The position numbers were made by a program, and so were the translations under genes. Source: Escherichia coli (GTDB lineage Bacteria; Pseudomonadota; Gammaproteobacteria; Enterobacterales; Enterobacteriaceae). Taken from it: 64,000 nt of DNA. Shown here piece by piece: positions 1,875 to 63,845 of the stretch; positions within the stretch are counted from its first letter, which is position 1; every line of letters starts with the position of its first letter. The notes beneath the pieces were generated by a model. That model was not told the origin of the DNA. It did no database searches and saw nothing but the letters and a program-made list of their open reading frames with translations. The stretch lies in the NCBI RefSeq assembly GCF_044324875.1, contig NZ_CP172185.1, one strand, 5' to 3'.

Positions 1875-2918
1875 ATGCGCTATCGCATTTTCCTTCTCTT
1901 TTTTTTCGCTTTGTTGCCGACGTCTTTGGTGTGGGCGGCACCAGCGCAACGGGCGTTTTCCGACTGGCAGGTCACCTGTAATAATCAAAATTTTTGTGTG
2001 GCGCGCAATACGGGCGATCATAATGGACTGGTGATGACCCTGAGCCGCAGCGCTGGGGCGCATACCGATGCCGTTTTACGTATTGAGCGCGGCGGGTTGA
2101 AGTCGCCGGATGCGTCGGAAGGGGAGATAGCGCCACGGCTGCTGTTAGATGGTGAGCCGTTGGCATTAAGTGGTGACAAGTGGCGGATTTCACCATGGTT
2201 ATTAGTAACCGATGATACGGCAACCCTCACCGCGTTTTTGCAGATGATTCAGGAAGGGAAGGCAATCACCTTACGCGATGGCAATCAGACCATTTCTCTG
2301 AATGGCTTAAAAGCGGCGTTGTTGTTTATTGATGCTCAGCAAAAGCGCGTTGGCAGTGAAACCGCGTGGATAAAGAAAGGGGACGAACCGCCGCTCAGCG
2401 TACCGCCCGCGCCTGCGCTGAAAGAGGTCGCGGTGGTTAACCCAACGCCGACGCCACTCTCACTCGAAGAACGCAACGATTTGCTGGATTATGGAAACTG
2501 GCGGATGAATGGTCTGCGCTGCTCGCTTGATCCGTTACGTCGTGAGGTGAATGTCACTGCGCTGACCGATGATAAAGCACTGATGATGATTAGCTGTGAG
2601 GCAGGGGCCTATAACACCATTGATTTGGCATGGATTGTGTCGCGTAAAAAGCCGCTAGCCTCGCGCCCGGTACGGTTGCGTTTGCCGTTCAACAACGGTC
2701 AGGAGACGAATGAACTGGAACTGATGAACGCAACATTTGATGAGAAATCGCGTGAACTGGTGACCTTAGCGAAAGGGCGCGGATTAAGCGATTGTGGCAT
2801 TCAGGCGCGCTGGCGCTTTGACGGTCAGCGTTTTCGCCTGGTGCGTTACGCCGCAGAACCCACCTGCGATAACTGGCATGGGCCAGACGCCTGGCCCACG
2901 TTGTGGATCACCCGTTAA
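1875..2918 (+). CDS. ypfG: DUF1176 periplasmic protein with signal peptide
   Basis: 347 aa ORF with hydrophobic N-terminal signal sequence; recognised as YpfG. Confidence 0.85.
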   Translation: MRYRIFLLFFFALLPTSLVWAAPAQRAFSDWQVTCNNQNFCVARNTGDHNGLVMTLSRSAGAHTDAVLRIERGGLKSPDASEGEIAPRLLLDGEPLALSGDKWRISPWLLVTDDTATLTAFLQMIQEGKAITLRDGNQTISLNGLKAALLFIDAQQKRVGSETAWIKKGDEPPLSVPPAPALKEVAVVNPTPTPLSLEERNDLLDYGNWRMNGLRCSLDPLRREVNVTALTDDKALMMISCEAGAYNTIDLAWIVSRKKPLASRPVRLRLPFNNGQETNELELMNATFDEKSRELVTLAKGRGLSDCGIQARWRFDGQRFRLVRYAAEPTCDNWHGPDAWPTLWITR

Positions 2919-2956
2919 ACAAAATCGCAGATGAGGCCCTAAAAAGCGCACGGACC

Positions 2957-2998
2957 GTCCCCTCGCCCCTCTGGGAGAGGGTTAGGGTGAGGGGAACA
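2957..2998. repeat. GC-rich palindromic intergenic repeat between convergent ypfG and tktB; family not assigned
   Basis: About 42 bp nearly identical to 16335..16377 (gtcccctcgcccct-N-gggagagggttagggtgaggggaaca). Confidence 0.6.
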
Positions 2999-3005
2999 TA
3001 CAGCA

Positions 3006-5009
3006 TCAGGCACCTTTCACTCCCAGCACCTTATGCGCTTTTGCCACAATATTCTCGGCGGTAAAGCCAAAGAACGGGAACAGCTTATCTGCCGGAGCAG
3101 ATTCCCCATAACCTGTCATCCCAACAATCGCCCCTTTCAAACCAACATACTTGTACCAGTAATCGGCGATGCCTGCTTCCACCGCCACGCGAGCCGCAAC
3201 GTTAGAAGGCAACACCGACTCCCGATATTCCTCATCCTGGGCGTCGAAAATATCGGTCGAAGGTAGGGAAACTACGCGTACATTACGACCTTCTCCCGCT
3301 AATTTCTCCGCCGCTTGCAGGGTGATTTCCATCTCTGAACCGGTGGCAATCAAAATAATATCTGGCTTGCCGCCGCTGTCTTTCAGCACATAACCACCAC
3401 GAGCAATCTCTTTAACCTGATCCGGCGTACGTTCCACCTGGGCCAGATTCTGCCTTGAGAGGATCAGTGCCGTCGGTCCGTTGTGGCGCTCAACCGCCAG
3501 CTTCCAGCCTACCGCTGCTTCCACCTGATCGCACGGTCGCCAGGTGCTGAAATTTGGCGTTAAGCGCAAACTGGCCAGTTGCTCAACAGCCTGGTGGGTC
3601 GGACCATCTTCCCCTAAGCCAATTGAGTCGTGGGTATAAACCATAATCTGCCGCGCTTTCATCAGTGCCGCCATCCGCGCGGCGTTACGGGCGTATTCAA
3701 CAAACATCAGGAACGTCGCGGTATACGGCACAAAGCCGCCGTGGTGCGCAATGCCGTTGGCGATAGCGGTCATGCCAAATTCACGCACCCCGTAGTGAAT
3801 GTAGTTGCCCGCCGGATCTTCCTTCAGCGAAACAGAACCTTTCCAGATGGTCAGGTTGCTGGGAGCCAGATCCGCCGAACCGCCGAGCAACTCCGGTAGC
3901 ATAGGCCCGTAAGCGTTAAGCGTATTTTGCGAAGCCTTACGGGTAGCGATTTTCGCCGGATTCGCCTGCAATTCATTGATATATTTCTGAGTCGTTTTCT
4001 CCCAGTCCTTCGGCAAACCGCCGCTCATCCGACGGGTAAACTCTTCTGCCAGTTGCGGATGGGCCTTTTTATAGGCGGCAAACTTCTCATTCCAGCTCTG
4101 CTGCGCTTTTTCGCCTTTTTCGCGGGCATCCCAGGCGTGATAAATCTCTTTAGGGATCTCAAATGGCGGATGGTGCCAGCCCAGTTTTTGCCGTGCCAGC
4201 GCCACTTCTTCTTCCCCCAGCGGTGCGCCGTGCGCCTCTTCCTTACCTGCTTTATTCGGCGAACCAAAGCCAATTACTGTGCGGCAGATAATCAGCGACG
4301 GCTTATCTTTCACGCTTTGCGCTTCAAGGATCGCTTTCTTCACCGCCTGCGGATCGTGACCGTCGATTTCATGGATCACATGCCAGTGATAGGCTTCAAA
4401 ACGTTTTGCTGTATCGTCGGTAAACCAGCCTTCGGTTTCACCGTCGATGGAAATACCGTTGTGATCGTAAAAACCAATCAGCTTGCCCAGTCCCAGCGTG
4501 CCCGCCAGCGAACAGACTTCGTGGGAAATACCTTCCATCAGGCAACCGTCGCCCATAAACACATAGGTGAAGTGATCGACAATTTCATGATCCGGCTGGT
4601 TAAACTGCGCCGCCAGTGTACGCTCTGCTATCGCCAGTCCGACGGCGTTCGCCAAACCTTGTCCAAGTGGACCGGTGGTGGTTTCAACACCTGGCGTATA
4701 GCCAATCTCCGGGTGACCTGGGGTTTTTGAATGCAACTGACGGAAGTTCTTCAGCTCTTCCAGCGGCAGGTCGTAACCGGTCAGATGTAGCAAACTGTAG
4801 AGCAGCATCGACGCGTGGCCGTTGGAAAGAATAAAGCGGTCGCGATCATACCAGGTTGGGTCGGTGGGGTTATGTTTAAGAAAATCGTTCCACAGCACTT
4901 CGGCAATATCAGCCATGCCCATCGGCGCGCCGGGATGACCAGAATTGGCTTTTTGTACCGCATCCATACTGAGTGCGCGAATCGCATTGGCAAGGTCTTT
5001 TCGGGACAT
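3006..5009 (-). CDS. tktB: transketolase 2
   Basis: Protein from [21 protein letters not shown] recognised as TktB (667 aa); ATG at 5007..5009 (complement) inside longer track ORF 3006..5072. Confidence 0.93.
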
Positions 5010-14307: not shown

Positions 14308-15144
14308 ATGGCGCACGACGAACAATGGCTCATCCCGCGTCTGCAAACGGCGGCAACGCTGTGTAACCAGACGCCTGCCGCAACGGAATCTCCGCTGTGG
14401 CTGGGGGTGGATCTGGGCACCTGCGATGTGGTGTCGATGGTTGTCGACCGCGACGGTCAGCCGGTGGCGGTATGCCTCGACTGGGCTGATGTGGTCCGCG
14501 ACGGCATCGTCTGGGATTTCTTCGGTGCGGTCACCATTGTTCGTCGCCATCTTGACACCCTCGAGCAGCAATTCGGTCGCCGTTTTAGCCATGCGGCGAC
14601 CTCTTTTCCTCCAGGTACGGACCCGCGTATTTCCATCAACGTGCTGGAGTCTGCCGGGCTGGAAGTGAGCCATGTGCTGGATGAGCCAACCGCAGTCGCG
14701 GATCTGCTGCAACTGGACAACGCCGGTGTAGTGGATATCGGCGGCGGCACCACCGGCATTGCCATCGTGAAAAAGGGCAAGGTGACTTACTCGGCAGATG
14801 AAGCCACCGGCGGACATCACATCTCTCTGACTCTCGCCGGAAATCGTCGTATTTCGCTGGAGGAGGCAGAGCAGTACAAGCGCGGTCACGGTGAAGAGAT
14901 TTGGCCCGCGGTGAAACCGGTGTACGAAAAAATGGCGGACATTGTCGCCCGGCATATTGAAGGGCAGGGCATTACTGATTTATGGCTGGCGGGCGGCTCT
15001 TGTATGCAACCGGGCGTGGCGGAACTGTTTCGCAAACAATTCCCGGCGTTACAGGTGCATTTACCGCAGCACAGTTTGTTTATGACCCCGCTGGCGATCG
15101 CCAGTAGCGGGCGAGAGAAAGCGGAGGGGATCTATGCAAAATGA
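14308..15144 (+). CDS. eutJ: EutJ, Hsp70/actin-fold chaperone-like protein
   Basis: 278 aa; operon position. Confidence 0.88.
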   Translation: MAHDEQWLIPRLQTAATLCNQTPAATESPLWLGVDLGTCDVVSMVVDRDGQPVAVCLDWADVVRDGIVWDFFGAVTIVRRHLDTLEQQFGRRFSHAATSFPPGTDPRISINVLESAGLEVSHVLDEPTAVADLLQLDNAGVVDIGGGTTGIAIVKKGKVTYSADEATGGHHISLTLAGNRRISLEEAEQYKRGHGEEIWPAVKPVYEKMADIVARHIEGQGITDLWLAGGSCMQPGVAELFRKQFPALQVHLPQHSLFMTPLAIASSGREKAEGIYAK

Positions 15145-16321
15145 ATTGCAGACCGCGCTCTTTCAGGCGTTCGATACCCTGAATCTGCAACGGGTAAAAA
15201 CATTTAGCGTTCCACCGGTGACGCTTTGCGGTCCGGGCGCGGTGAGCAGTTGTGGGCAGCAAGCGCAAACGCGTGGGCTGAAACATCTGTTCGTGATGGC
15301 AGACAGCTTTTTGCATCAGGCAGGGATGACCGCCGGGCTGACGCGTAGCCTGGCCGTTAAAGGTATCGCCATGACGCTCTGGCCATGTCCGGTGGGCGAA
15401 CCATGCATCACCGACGTGTGTGCAGCCGTGGCGCAGTTGCGTGAATCAGGCTGTGACGGGGTGATTGCGTTTGGCGGCGGCTCGGTGCTGGATGCAGCAA
15501 AAGCCGTGGCGTTGCTGGTGACGAACCCGGATAGCACGCTGGCAGAGATGTCAGAAACCAGCGTTCTGCAACCGCGCCTGCCGTTGATTGCCATTCCAAC
15601 GACCGCCGGAACCGGCTCTGAAACCACCAACGTAACGGTGATTATCGACGCGGTGAGCGGGCGCAAGCAGGTGTTAGCCCATGCCTCGCTGATGCCGGAT
15701 GTGGCGATTCTCGACGCTGCGCTGACCGAAGGCGTGCCGTCGCATGTCACGGCGATGACCGGTATCGACGCGTTAACCCATGCTATTGAAGCGTACAGCG
15801 CGCTGAACGCCACACCGTTTACCGACAGCCTGGCGATTGGTGCCATTGCGATGATTGGCAAATCGCTGCCGAAAGCGGTGGGCTACGGTCACGACCTTGC
15901 CGCCCGCGAGAGCATGTTGCTGGCTTCATGTATGGCGGGAATGGCGTTTTCCAGTGCGGGGCTTGGGTTGTGCCACGCGATGGCGCATCAGCCAGGGGCG
16001 GCGCTGCATATTCCGCACGGTCTGGCGAACGCCATGCTACTGCCAACGGTGATGGAGTTTAACCGGATGGTCTGTCGTGAACGCTTTAGTCAGATTGGTC
16101 GGGCGCTGCGAACTAAAAAATCCGACGATCGTGACGCTATTAACGCGGTAAGTGAGCTGATTGCGGAAGTCGGGATTGGTAAACGACTGGGCGATATTGG
16201 TGCGACATCTGCGCATTACGGCGCATGGGCGCAGGCCGCGCTGGAAGATATTTGTCTGCGCAGCAACCCGCGTACCGCCAGCCTGGAGCAGATTATTGGT
16301 CTGTATGCTGCGGCGCAATAA
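15134..16321 (+). CDS. eutG: iron-containing alcohol dehydrogenase EutG
   Basis: 395 aa Fe-ADH family protein; operon position. Confidence 0.9.
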   Translation: MQNELQTALFQAFDTLNLQRVKTFSVPPVTLCGPGAVSSCGQQAQTRGLKHLFVMADSFLHQAGMTAGLTRSLAVKGIAMTLWPCPVGEPCITDVCAAVAQLRESGCDGVIAFGGGSVLDAAKAVALLVTNPDSTLAEMSETSVLQPRLPLIAIPTTAGTGSETTNVTVIIDAVSGRKQVLAHASLMPDVAILDAALTEGVPSHVTAMTGIDALTHAIEAYSALNATPFTDSLAIGAIAMIGKSLPKAVGYGHDLAARESMLLASCMAGMAFSSAGLGLCHAMAHQPGAALHIPHGLANAMLLPTVMEFNRMVCRERFSQIGRALRTKKSDDRDAINAVSELIAEVGIGKRLGDIGATSAHYGAWAQAALEDICLRSNPRTASLEQIIGLYAAAQ

Positions 16322-16334
16322 AAGTGTACGGACA

Positions 16335-16435
16335 GTCCCCTCGCCCCTTTGGGGAGAGGGTTAGGGTGAGGGGAACAGAGTCGCGCCGGTGCAAATAATT
16401 ACCCTCACCCCGACCCCTCGGCTTCCAGAGTGAGG
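16335..16435. repeat. GC-rich palindromic intergenic repeat between eutG and eutH; family not assigned
   Basis: 16335..16377 nearly identical to 2957..2998, followed by an inverted partial copy (accctcaccccgacccctc). Confidence 0.6.
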
Positions 16436-16490
16436 GAAAAACCCACTTTCAGCATTGGCAATAAATAACAACTAACAGGGAGTAAAGGCG

Positions 16491-17717
16491 ATGGGAATTA
16501 ACGAAATCATCATGTACATCATGATGTTCTTTATGCTGATAGCTGCCGTAGACAGGATCCTGTCGCAGTTCGGCGGTTCTGCTCGTTTCCTCGGTAAGTT
16601 CGGTAAAAGTATCGAAGGATCAGGCGGTCAGTTCGAAGAAGGCTTTATGGCAATGGGCGCACTGGGCCTGGCGATGGTCGGTATGACCGCGCTGGCACCG
16701 GTACTGGCTCACGTACTCGGGCCGGTGATTATCCCGGTTTACGAAATGCTCGGCGCAAACCCATCGATGTTCGCCGGAACACTGCTGGCGTGCGATATGG
16801 GCGGCTTCTTCCTCGCCAAAGAGCTGGCGGGCGGCGACGTAGCAGCGTGGCTATACTCTGGGTTAATTCTCGGGTCGATGATGGGGCCAACGATTGTGTT
16901 TTCCATTCCGGTGGCGCTCGGCATTATCGAACCTTCTGACCGTCGTTATCTGGCGCTCGGCGTGCTGGCGGGCATTGTGACCATTCCGATTGGCTGTATT
17001 GCCGGTGGTCTGGTGGCTATGTATTCCGGTGTGCAGATCAACGGTCAGCCAGTGGAATTCACCTTTGCCCTGATCCTGATGAACATGATCCCGGTACTTA
17101 TCGTCGCGGTACTGGTGGCGCTGGGGCTGAAATTCATCCCGGAAAAAATGATCAACGGCTTCCAGATCTTCGCCAAATTCCTCGTTGCATTGATCACCCT
17201 CGGTCTTGCCGCTGCGGTAGTGAAATTCCTGCTCGGTTGGGAACTGATCCCCGGTCTGGATCCGATCTTCATGGCTCCAGGCGATAAACCCGGTGAAGTG
17301 ATGCGCGCCATTGAAGTTATCGGTTCTATCTCCTGCGTGCTGTTAGGGGCGTACCCGATGGTACTGCTGCTGACCCGCTGGTTTGAAAAACCGCTGATGA
17401 GCGTCGGTAAGGTGCTGAATATGAACAACATCGCGGCAGCTGGCATGGTGGCAACGCTTGCCAACAACATCCCAATGTTTGGCATGATGAAGCAGATGGA
17501 TACCCGCGGCAAAGTCATCAACTGCGCCTTCGCCGTTTCCGCTGCTTTCGCCCTGGGTGACCACTTAGGCTTCGCCGCTGCCAACATGAACGCCATGATT
17601 TTCCCGATGATTGTCGGCAAGTTGATCGGCGGCGTAACGGCGATTGGCGTGGCGATGATGCTGGTGCCAAAAGAAGACGCGACCGCGGCCAAAACCGAAG
17701 CGGAGGCACAATCGTGA
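16491..17717 (+). CDS. eutH: ethanolamine permease EutH
   Basis: 408 aa polytopic membrane protein; operon position. Confidence 0.92.
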   Translation: MGINEIIMYIMMFFMLIAAVDRILSQFGGSARFLGKFGKSIEGSGGQFEEGFMAMGALGLAMVGMTALAPVLAHVLGPVIIPVYEMLGANPSMFAGTLLACDMGGFFLAKELAGGDVAAWLYSGLILGSMMGPTIVFSIPVALGIIEPSDRRYLALGVLAGIVTIPIGCIAGGLVAMYSGVQINGQPVEFTFALILMNMIPVLIVAVLVALGLKFIPEKMINGFQIFAKFLVALITLGLAAAVVKFLLGWELIPGLDPIFMAPGDKPGEVMRAIEVIGSISCVLLGAYPMVLLLTRWFEKPLMSVGKVLNMNNIAAAGMVATLANNIPMFGMMKQMDTRGKVINCAFAVSAAFALGDHLGFAAANMNAMIFPMIVGKLIGGVTAIGVAMMLVPKEDATAAKTEAEAQS

Positions 17718-36690: not shown

Positions 36691-37777
36691 GATTGCCAAT
36701 ATTAAGAAGTCTTTTGGTCGCACCCAGGTGCTGAACGATATCTCACTGGATATTCCTTCTGGTCAGATGGTCGCATTGCTGGGGCCGTCCGGTTCCGGGA
36801 AAACCACGCTGCTGCGCATTATCGCCGGGCTGGAGCATCAAACCAGCGGGCATATTCGCTTCCACGGCACCGACGTCAGCCGCCTGCATGCGCGCGATCG
36901 TAAAGTTGGTTTCGTGTTCCAGCACTATGCGCTGTTCCGCCATATGACGGTGTTCGACAATATCGCTTTCGGCCTGACGGTGCTGCCGCGTCGCGAGCGC
37001 CCGAATGCCGCAGCCATCAAAGCGAAAGTGACAAAATTGCTGGAGATGGTGCAGCTTGCGCATCTGGCGGATCGTTATCCGGCACAGCTTTCCGGCGGGC
37101 AGAAACAGCGCGTGGCGCTGGCGCGTGCGCTCGCTGTGGAACCGCAAATTCTGCTGCTTGATGAACCGTTTGGCGCGCTGGATGCGCAGGTGCGTAAAGA
37201 GCTGCGTCGCTGGCTGCGTCAGTTACATGAAGAGCTGAAATTCACCAGCGTGTTTGTGACCCATGACCAGGAAGAAGCGACCGAAGTAGCCGATCGTGTA
37301 GTGGTGATGAGCCAGGGCAATATCGAGCAGGCTGATGCACCGGACCAGGTATGGCGCGAACCAGCGACCCGTTTTGTACTCGAATTTATGGGCGAAGTGA
37401 ACCGCCTGCAGGGAACCATTCGCGGCGGGCAGTTCCATGTTGGCGCACATCGCTGGCCGCTGGGCTATACACCTGCGTATCAGGGGCCGGTGGATCTCTT
37501 CCTTCGTCCGTGGGAAGTGGATATCAGCCGCCGTACCAGCCTCGATTCGCCGCTGCCGGTACAGGTACTGGAAGCCAGCCCGAAAGGCCACTACACCCAA
37601 TTAGTTGTGCAGCCGCTGGGGTGGTACAACGAACCGCTGACGGTTGTGATGCATGGCGACGATGCCCCGCAGCGTGGCGAGCGTTTATTCGTTGGTCTGC
37701 AACATGCGCGGCTGTATAACGGCGACGAGCGTATTGAAACCCGCGATGAGGAACTTGCTCTCGCACAAAGCGCCTGA
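36680..37777 (+). CDS. cysA: sulfate/thiosulfate ABC transporter ATP-binding protein
   Basis: 365 aa; Walker [10 protein letters not shown] and ABC signature LSGGQ. Confidence 0.95.
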
Positions 37778-37851
37778 TAGGTTGAGTGAATGTTAAACGC
37801 CCGGAGGCGCTTCCCGCGATCCGGGCTTTTTAATGGCAAGGTTTGTAACCT

Positions 37852-37887
37852 GTAGGCCTGATAAGACGCGCAAGCGTCGCATCAGGC
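37852..37887. repeat. REP (repetitive extragenic palindromic) element
   Basis: gtaggcctgataagacgcgcaagcgtcgcatcaggc matches the classic REP palindrome. Confidence 0.8.
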
Positions 37888-37910
37888 AACACCACGTATG
37901 GACAGAGATC

Positions 37911-55018: not shown

Positions 55019-55078
55019 ATCGCAGATAGCAAAAAAGCGCCTTTAGGGCGCTTTTTTACATTGGTGGGTCGTGCAGGA
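55019..55078 (-). repeat. duplicated copy of the lysV terminator plus the last 17 nt of tRNA-Lys (tRNA 3' fragment)
   Basis: 60 bp identical to 55175..55234; contains tggtgggtcgtgcagga, the complement of the tRNA-Lys 3' end. Confidence 0.75.
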
Positions 55079-55184
55079 TGACTCGCTTCGCTCGCCCTTC
55101 GGGCCGTCGCCGCGAGCGGCTCCGTTGTTTCGCTGCGCTCAACTCGAACCTGCTGCAGGTTCGAATCTTTGAGTATCGCAGATA

Positions 55185-55213
55185 GCAAAAAAGCGCCTTT
55201 AGGGCGCTTTTTT
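55185..55213 (-). terminator. rho-independent terminator of the valU-valX-valY-lysV tRNA operon
   Basis: aaaaaagcgcc-ttta-gggcgctttttt hairpin immediately 3' of lysV. Confidence 0.75.
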
Positions 55214-55217
55214 ACAT

Positions 55218-55293
55218 TGGTGGGTCGTGCAGGATTCGAACCTGCGACCAATTGATTAAAAGTCAACTGCTCTACCAACTGAGCTAACGACCC
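55218..55293 (-). tRNA. lysV: tRNA-Lys (anticodon UUU)
   Basis: 76 nt; reverse complement reads gggtcgttagctcagttggtagagcagttgacttttaatcaattggtcgcaggttcgaatcctgcacgacccacca. Confidence 0.95.
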
Positions 55294-55297
55294 GAAG

Positions 55298-55373
55298 TGG
55301 TGGGTGATGACGGGATCGAACCGCCGACCCCCTCCTTGTAAGGGAGGTGCTCTCCCAGCTGAGCTAATCACCC
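55298..55373 (-). tRNA. valY: tRNA-Val (anticodon UAC)
   Basis: 76 nt; reverse complement reads gggtgattagctcagctgggagagcacctcccttacaaggagggggtcggcggttcgatcccgtcatcacccacca. Confidence 0.95.
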
Positions 55374-55419
55374 ACTTCGGTACTTCACATTTTTACAAGA
55401 AATTTAGCTGGCGAGAAAG

Positions 55420-55495
55420 TGGTGGGTGATGACGGGATCGAACCGCCGACCCCCTCCTTGTAAGGGAGGTGCTCTCCCAGCTGAGCTAATCACCC
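55420..55495 (-). tRNA. valX: tRNA-Val (anticodon UAC)
   Basis: Identical 76 nt copy. Confidence 0.95.
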
Positions 55496-55538
55496 ACTTC
55501 TCAATTTCTTGCTACACGGCGGAGACTACATAAAGAAG

Positions 55539-55614
55539 TGGTGGGTGATGACGGGATCGAACCGCCGACCCCCTCCTTGTAAGGGAGGTGCTCTCCCAGC
55601 TGAGCTAATCACCC
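55539..55614 (-). tRNA. valU: tRNA-Val (anticodon UAC)
   Basis: Identical 76 nt copy; first gene of the tRNA operon. Confidence 0.95.
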
Positions 55615-55631
55615 CCGCTGTGTGGAGTCGC

Positions 55632-58312: not shown

Positions 58313-58388
<76 letters not shown>

Positions 58389-58427
58389 AATTTTGCACCC
58401 AGCAAATTTGGTACGTAAACGCATCGT

Positions 58428-58503
<76 letters not shown>

Positions 58504-58504
58504 A

Positions 58505-58530
58505 ATTTCAAACCCTCGCTGTAAAGCGGG
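58505..58530 (+). terminator. terminator-like hairpin after alaW
   Basis: ccctcgc-tgtaaa-gcggggg stem followed by tttttt. Confidence 0.6.
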
Positions 58531-63754: not shown

Positions 63755-63845
63755 GGCGGATGCGGCGTAAAACGCCTTATCCGCCCTATGCGTTAAAGAG
63801 ACGGTTTGTAGGTCTGATAAGACGCGCTAGCGTCGCATCAGGCAT
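63755..63845. repeat. BIME-type cluster of two REP elements between mntH and ypeC
   Basis: ggcggatgcggcgtaaaacgccttatccgccctat and gtaggtctgataagacgcgctagcgtcgcatcaggc, both REP-like palindromes. Confidence 0.75.

Follow-up and report, generated by a model that had tools for sequence, protein, structure and literature searches.

What is the GC-rich palindrome that lies between eutG and eutH in this Escherichia coli DNA, and does it serve the eut operon? The question was addressed in a stretch of 64,000 nt (hereafter the window), with gene names taken from the RefSeq annotation of matching genomes. The first-pass annotation had described a repeat of about 42 bp, nearly identical in the eutG-eutH and ypfG/tktB spacers, and had proposed that the eut copy acts as an mRNA stabiliser, attenuator or processing site. 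Sequence comparison agrees with the description of the repeat. The eut copy, gtcccctcgcccctttggggagagggttagggtgaggggaaca, is GC-rich, occupies about 43 nt at 16335-16377 and is held in the 169-nt eutG-eutH spacer. The second copy, gtcccctcgcccctctgggagagggttagggtgaggggaaca at 2957-2998, lies in the 87-nt spacer of ypfG and tktB. The two differ by one substitution and one 1-nt indel (a base missing in the 2957-2998 copy). Their likeness runs left to 16320 and 2942, respectively, giving 53 matches in an alignment of 58 columns. The genes around the two copies are the following.

1875-2918, plus strand: ypfG
ending at 3006, minus strand: tktB, convergent with ypfG
15134-16321, plus strand: eutG, with the stop codon TAA at 16319-16321
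16491-17717, plus strand: eutH

Judged by its sequence, the eutG-eutH palindrome is a copy of BoxC, a known intergenic repeat of E. coli. BoxC was the first name of this repeat, which was then called the PIT (potential intrastrand triplex) element and later TMECO (Holder et al. 2015, PMC4666352). The family had been left unnamed in the first-pass annotation, and it was recognised here through the identity of the core to published K-12 copies. The 36-mer at 16338-16373, CCCTCGCCCCTTTGGGGAGAGGGTTAGGGTGAGGGG, is letter-identical to K-12 TMECO nos. 7, 11 and 15, which are classed as 'type A mm' (PMC4666352, Table 1). The TMECO consensus, 5'-CCCTCNCCC-N3-6-GGGNGAGGG-N3-GGGNGAGGG[G/T/C/-]-3' (Holder et al. 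2015, PMC4666352), has exactly two matches in the 64-kb window, at 16338-16372 and 2960-2993. No match occurred in 100 dinucleotide-preserving shuffles of the window.

A genome-wide search for further copies, as had been suggested with the original description, placed the eut spacer at 37,531 positions in 5,424 of the 5,426 complete E. coli genomes, with a median of 7 per genome. The repeat is dispersed and multi-copy, and both window copies lie between annotated genes. The element class is already known, and the BoxC family has been described since the 1990s. Further literature on it includes Bergler 1992, Bachellier et al. in the 1990s, and Hoyne and Maher 2000/2002. BoxC is also named as a known E. 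coli family in a systematic survey of stem-loops (PMC2267715). Rfam searches at gathering and permissive thresholds placed no family on the element; the best weak hits were eukaryotic miRNA hairpins with E > 0.2. The supplements of Holder et al. do not mention eutG, eutH, tktB or ypfG.

To define the extent of the element, the eut spacer was aligned with its best non-orthologous matches, which were found at gcvP-ygfF, cca-bacA, sstT-alx and gntP-fimH. The 138-nt insert aligned over its full length with the BoxC pairs at gcvP-ygfF, cca-bacA and sstT-alx. The unit that recurs extends beyond the 36-nt core: a left arm is followed by the type A core, some 27 nt of linker, an inverted type B core and a right arm. 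By this alignment, a composite BoxC pair accounts for the entire segment 16322-16459, which stands where K-12, O111, O157-like and APEC strains have a REP/BIME segment. The parts of the spacer are as follows.

16322-16459, plus strand: whole allele-specific insert of 138 nt, between the eutG stop and the eutH leader; composite inverted pair of BoxC A and B with outer arms
16322-16337, plus strand: left outer arm, AAGTGTACGGACAGTC, also present in the ypfG/tktB copy
16338-16373, plus strand: BoxC type A unit with one mismatch, made of the C-block CCCTCGCCC, a loop, the G-block GGGAGAGGG, the loop TTA, the G-block GGGTGAGGG and a G
16374-16400, plus strand: central linker, AACAGAGTCGCGCCGGTGCAAATAATT, which aligns with the linkers of other BoxC pairs
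16401-16436, minus strand: degenerate, inverted type B BoxC unit, reading CCCTCACTCTGGAAGCCGAGGGGTCGGGGTGAGGGT on the minus strand, which aligns with the B halves at gcvP-ygfF, cca-bacA and sstT-alx
16437-16459, plus strand: right outer arm, AAAAACCCACTTTCAGCATTGGC, which aligns in part with the sequence to the right of other pairs (GAGGGAGAAAAC...CATTG)
16460-16490, plus strand: conserved eutH leader of 31 nt, outside the repeat and present in all E. coli alleles, with the Shine-Dalgarno sequence GGGAG at 16478-16482

The inverted partial copy that had been noted after the eut repeat corresponds to the degenerate second unit on the minus strand at 16401-16436. In this B half, CCCTCTCCCT is changed to CCCCTCGGCTT and GGGAGAGGG to AGAGTGAGGG, and CCCTCACTC and GCCGAGGGG stand in place of the C-block and the first G-block. 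The B half did not match the TMECO consensus even when 3 mismatches were allowed, and the three-block pattern is present in the type A unit alone. The A core, the linker and the B half nevertheless all align with other BoxC pairs as a type A unit joined to an inverted type B unit. Such inverted A+B pairs are reported at five K-12 loci (Holder et al., PMC4666352). For the outer arms, the alignment gave TAAAAAGTGCACGGACAGTCCCC / TAAAAAGTGCACGGACAGTC as the family consensus on the left and the pattern GAGAAAAC...CATTG among BoxC pairs on the right. The eut right arm is absent from the REP alleles. The eutH leader at 16460-16490 has its homologue in the minimal spacer (27 nt) found in some Citrobacter species.

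The eut element shares several features with published BoxC elements: a type A core identical to K-12 copies, with one mismatch and TTA as its loop; an intergenic, multi-copy distribution; the inverted A+B layout of the five K-12 loci; and a presence that varies among strains. It differs from them in that the K-12 set of 23 copies includes neither the eutG-eutH nor the ypfG-tktB locus. The eut B half is also degenerate and fails the triplex consensus, and the eut copy lies within a long operon, not at an operon end.

The second copy in the window is a single unit.

2926-2999, plus strand: single BoxC unit of left arm and type A core in the convergent ypfG/tktB spacer, delimited by allele alignment
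2960-2994, plus strand: BoxC type A core, CCCTCGCCCCTCTGGGAGAGGGTTAGGGTGAGGGG, an exact match to the consensus

At the place of 2926-2999, K-12 and JJ1886 have a REP, and ST2747 and isolate 68 have BoxC. The predicted RNA fold of this copy was unexceptional on either strand. At about 3000-3010, immediately ahead of the tktB stop, 14 nt (CGGCGATCACCATC) that separate two CATC repeats in isolate 68, K-12 and JJ1886 are missing from the window and from ST2747. This loss beside the BoxC unit looks like a slippage deletion.

Several observations concern the rest of the window. Its best identity to the 5,426 complete E. coli genomes was 98.5-98.6% over 8-kb and 20-kb stretches, and by this measure the window seems to come from an uncommon E. 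coli lineage. ST2747 (CP007394) is 99.4% identical at ypfG-tktB and has both BoxC alleles in common with the window. Ordinary REPs are also present, at 37851-37888 and 63807-63844 (TGTAGGCCTGATAAGACGCGCAAGCGTCGCATCAGGCA, 95% identical). Four minus-strand and two plus-strand tRNAs form a cluster (55019-55235, 55215-55619 and 58313-58515) that also holds a match to the RtT RNA at 55062-55187 and a 61-nt perfect direct repeat with the terminator-like palindrome AAAAAAGCGCCTTTAGGGCGCTTTTTT.

The distribution of the eut allele was then obtained by counting as carriers the genomes with at least 80% of the window's eutG-eutH spacer. The first-pass annotation had named absence from most strains as an observation that would count against its regulatory proposal, and such absence is what was found. 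The BoxC allele was present in 303 of the 5,426 complete E. coli genomes (~6%) and absent from the other ~94%. A K-12-type REP junction after the 3' end of eutG was present in 4,750 genomes (~88%). The ypfG/tktB BoxC spacer was found in 798 of the 5,426, and the presence of both copies varies among related strains.

With 1 kb of context, the E. coli locus came in lengths of 931, 948, 1001, 1048, 1148, 1248 and 1348 bp. The lengths of the REP alleles rise by 100 bp (948, 1048, 1148, 1248 and 1348). K-12 and APEC IMT5155 have two 100-bp REP-pair units (BIME), O111 has one and an O157-like strain has a truncated one; across E. coli the junction holds anything between 1 and about 5 BIME units. The insert measures 85 nt with a single REP pair and 185 nt with the K-12 BIME. 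In all E. coli alleles, the left side is ...GCGGCGCAATAA and the right side is the eutH leader, AATAAATAACAACTAACAGGGAGTAAAGGCG-ATG. This leader is the same in the BoxC allele and most REP alleles, and in the O157-like allele it carries one substitution, at its first base.

Among the carriers, ST2747 and 7/2 match the window in the length of the spacer (169 nt) and in the degenerate form of the B half. Their spacers differ from that of the window by only two SNPs, one of which falls in the linker 16374-16400, and by no indels. The flanking 3.5 kb of these two genomes differs from the window by ~1.4%. With the spacer so little changed and the flanks ~1.4% apart, the comparison points to an orthologous eut BoxC allele whose insertion is old and stable.

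Other species were scanned with one genome per species and a degenerate pattern for the eutH start, which gave 42 loci, 40 of them with a spacer. BoxC was present at the eutG-eutH junction in none of these 40 other enterobacterial species. No repeat fills the spacer in five Citrobacter species, where it measures 27 nt (ATACACATATGACAGGGAGTGAAGGCT), or in a Pluralibacter MAG and Yokenella, where it measures 32 nt. REP-type repeats occupy the junction in other Citrobacter, in Salmonella diarizonae, in Klebsiella and in Escherichia spp., with spacers of 60-578 nt. The REP types in the slot after eutG differ among these genera, and spacers overall range from 27 to 578 nt. Across the Enterobacteriaceae, the slot after the eutG stop is a hot spot of repeat colonisation that has been filled many times. 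Since repeat-free spacers of 27 and 32 nt exist, the repeat is not required for the eut operon.

The relation between BoxC and REP was followed at other BoxC loci. Polymorphic BoxC loci were eut, ypfG-tktB, sstT-alx, cca-bacA, gcvP and gntP-fimH. At cca-bacA, the BoxC pair is replaced elsewhere by a BIME of three REPs or by a single REP. At gntP-fimH, an 84-nt BoxC unit stands in place of 14 unrelated nt beside a resident REP, with no duplication. Of the six loci, three (eutG-eutH, ypfG-tktB and cca-bacA) carry either BoxC or REP/BIME at one and the same spot, depending on the strain. Because three of the six loci alternate with REP and a fourth is adjacent to one, BoxC may have spread by targeting or replacing REP sites. 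Bachellier et al. are said to have reported boxC insertions at BIME loci of natural isolates in 1997, in Genetics 145:551.

At sstT-alx, B2 strains (LF82) show a 75-bp deletion inside the BoxC pair that leaves the simple hairpin CCCCTCGCCCCTTTTGGGGAGAGGGAG. The deletion fits what Holder et al. (PMC4666352) call the 'palindrome effect'. In Z1323CEC0013 (330-817 of the locus), a different GC-rich insert stands in place of the BoxC pair in an allele 217 bp longer (1110 vs 893 bp), and a hypothetical protein is annotated in the longer allele in one genome. No clean empty site was found at sstT-alx or gcvP-ygfF; what the comparisons showed instead was a deletion within the element, an insert unrelated to it and a region that had been replaced.

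REP/BIME elements (repetitive extragenic palindromes) are mobilised by RAYT transposases, and they share more with BoxC than the junctions eutG-eutH, ypfG-tktB and cca-bacA in different strains. Both are GC-rich palindromes that fold into stable hairpins as RNA and differ from strain to strain. In sequence, however, they are unrelated. The window element is without the REP core GCCGGATG...CATCCGGC, and when 16322-16459 was read against the K-12, O111 and APEC alleles, the alternating REP core palindrome of the GCCGGATG...GCGTCTTATCCGGCCTAC type was absent. The three G/C blocks able to form a triplex are a feature of BoxC. Local alignments of other BoxC pairs with the K-12 BIME scored at or below chance. 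The eut linker was also considered as a remnant of the BIME linker (AGTCGCGCCGGTGCAA ~ AGTGGCGCGGTGCAA), and this candidate was rejected when 13% of shuffles reached its score (p = 0.13). We know of no RAYT-type transposase for BoxC.

On this evidence the BoxC pair at eutG-eutH is most likely a common repeat whose presence varies among strains, and not an element dedicated to control of the eut operon. We consider it likely that the pair is near-neutral and has at most a modest, generic hairpin effect. On this account, the A+B pair would fill the slot directly after the eutG stop, where most E. coli have REP/BIME, most likely as a near-neutral filler. It would probably be co-transcribed in the long eut mRNA, where pairing between its halves would give a hairpin of about -50 kcal/mol without a U-tract. 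Such a hairpin might form a modest barrier to 3'-to-5' exonucleases and could favour the upstream eutS-eutG message, as REPs do. A generic exonuclease-barrier effect of this kind on the eut mRNA is possible by analogy, and so is a real effect on the eutG:eutH ratio.

The larger stem-loop that had been anticipated for this segment is borne out by the predicted fold. RNA of 16330-16440 is predicted to form a single long hairpin (-50.3 kcal/mol; z = -2.63), in which the A half pairs with the B half; 3 of 200 shuffles folded equally stably. For the complete spacer of 169 nt the fold stands out less (z = -1.24). The predicted energies are -52.6 kcal/mol for the 138-nt BoxC insert, -89.6 for the K-12 BIME and -41.9 for the O111 REP pair. 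A scan for terminators and promoters found neither consensus on the element. No U-tract follows the stem on either strand, the element being followed by AAAAACCC, and the only terminator-like matches lie at 16508-16526, inside eutH. With intrinsic terminators and attenuators the element shares a GC-rich stem-loop between two genes; unlike them, BoxC has no U-run, and PIT elements are without terminator activity in published assays. In the work cited in PMC4666352, BoxC/PIT elements showed neither promoter nor terminator activity, and no effect on RNA polymerase or in vivo. Triplexes of the purine motif do not form in RNA, according to PMC4666352 and the work of Hoyne and Maher cited there.

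The strongest alternative is that the junction carries a selected RNA element internal to the operon. As a stem-loop barrier, a partial Rho-dependent terminator or both, it would set the expression of the shell and enzyme genes against that of EutH and the lyase, and BoxC would substitute for the BIME in this role. REPs within operons shield upstream RNA from 3' exonucleases and can be partial Rho-dependent terminators. They are documented as mRNA stabilisers and partial terminators, and in this way they stabilise the message of upstream genes and limit downstream transcription. Some palindromic repeat lies exactly at the junction in most enterobacterial lineages, and the predicted hairpins are strong in both the BoxC and the REP allele classes. 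Strong palindromic folds in most lineages could reflect selection for structure and not mere tolerance. The BoxC allele is also old and conserved among its carriers, and a B half that is degenerate yet conserved among them is compatible with constraint. Against this, the repeat-free spacers of the five Citrobacter (27 nt), the Pluralibacter MAG and Yokenella (32 nt) dispense with any such element. BIME copies vary freely between 1 and about 5 units, which argues against tight tuning. In addition, the published tests cited in PMC4666352 gave no terminator, promoter or RNA polymerase effect for BoxC/PIT, the hairpin is without a U-tract, and the full-spacer fold reaches a z of only -1.24. We regard a selected element as rather unlikely.

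A narrower form of this idea concerns translation of eutH. The eutH Shine-Dalgarno sequence GGGAG (16478-16482) was predicted to pair with CUUCC in the B half (16422-16426), with a probability of about 0.92 in every context tried, and it was predicted to be much more open in the REP alleles. Dinucleotide shuffles of the element masked it as strongly in 7% of cases, and allele-specific masking was kept as a weak lead only. It is unlikely that the junction is a selected slot for structured spacers that governs how strongly upstream and downstream eut genes are expressed relative to each other, in which BoxC, on replacing REP/BIME, would mask the eutH ribosome-binding site through CUUCC and lower EutH. 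The proposal of the first-pass annotation that the palindrome tunes eut expression as a stabiliser, attenuator or processing site is not upheld as far as a role dedicated to eut is concerned. Most strains lack the element, it has no promoter or terminator consensus, some Citrobacter species have bare spacers at the same place, and BoxC was inactive in published work.

Returning to the near-neutral repeat as the preferred account, a role at the level of DNA was also weighed. The G-rich strand, when single-stranded, would fold into a triplex and stall polymerases, and the spacer would become a hot spot of rearrangement. This strand is the plus strand of the window, which is the non-template strand for eut. 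The GC skew of the plus strand is positive throughout the window (0.045), and by this skew it would be the lagging-strand template. The triplex-forming consensus is present in the type A unit, and the G-rich strand of the 'type A mm' class forms an intrastrand purine-motif triplex in vitro (PMC4666352). Loci bearing TMECO are reported to be more variable than control loci (PMC4666352), and the six BoxC loci compared here are polymorphic. In vivo, however, DMS probing and footprinting detected no triplex (PMC4666352). The eut BoxC allele itself is stable, with two SNPs and no indels between flanks ~1.4% apart. The length variation at the junction belongs to REP alleles and not to BoxC, and the B half fails the triplex consensus. 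A DNA-level element is quite unlikely on this evidence.

A further alternative would make the insert a MITE-like mobile element, a composite of ~140 nt with inverted arms and a target-site duplication, moved by a putative trans-acting transposase. The outer arms are inverted, and the symmetry reaches beyond the BoxC cores. An 8-nt direct repeat, GCAATAAA, flanks the eut insert at 16315-16322 and 16458-16465, and presence varies among strains. ERIC/IRU and other enterobacterial MITE-like repeats are likewise composite imperfect palindromes of ~130-140 nt that are intergenic, co-transcribed with their neighbours and variably present. Yet they have no sequence similarity to BoxC, and BoxC is without a consistent target-site duplication. 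REP alleles of the eut junction are themselves bounded by a duplication that overlaps this direct repeat, CAATAAAT (in the genome of a cryptic clade, AATAAATAAC). Because of this overlap, the GCAATAAA duplication probably pre-dates BoxC or belongs to the site. Allele comparisons gave no target-site duplication at ypfG-tktB or gntP-fimH, and TMECO elements are reported to have no association with transposons, phages or plasmids (Holder et al., PMC4666352). A MITE with a target-site duplication was rejected as an explanation of the flanking repeat, and a MITE-like origin of the element as a whole is improbable.

Finally, it is almost certainly not the case that the spacer codes for a small protein or gives rise to a small RNA of its own: ORFs do overlap the element (16225-16398, plus strand, 57 aa; 16361-16471, minus strand, 36 aa; 16293-16394, minus strand, 33 aa), but they lie in a multi-copy repeat that is absent here in most strains, with no promoter consensus and no Rfam family at threshold.

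With the palindrome recognised as BoxC/PIT/TMECO, it need not be taken for an attenuator specific to eut or for an unknown RNA; beyond annotation, the identification adds little. The natural alleles of the junction (BoxC, REP in 1-5 units and repeat-free) form an allelic series for the effects of repeats in a long operon. The same series also bears on how BoxC relates to REP sites.
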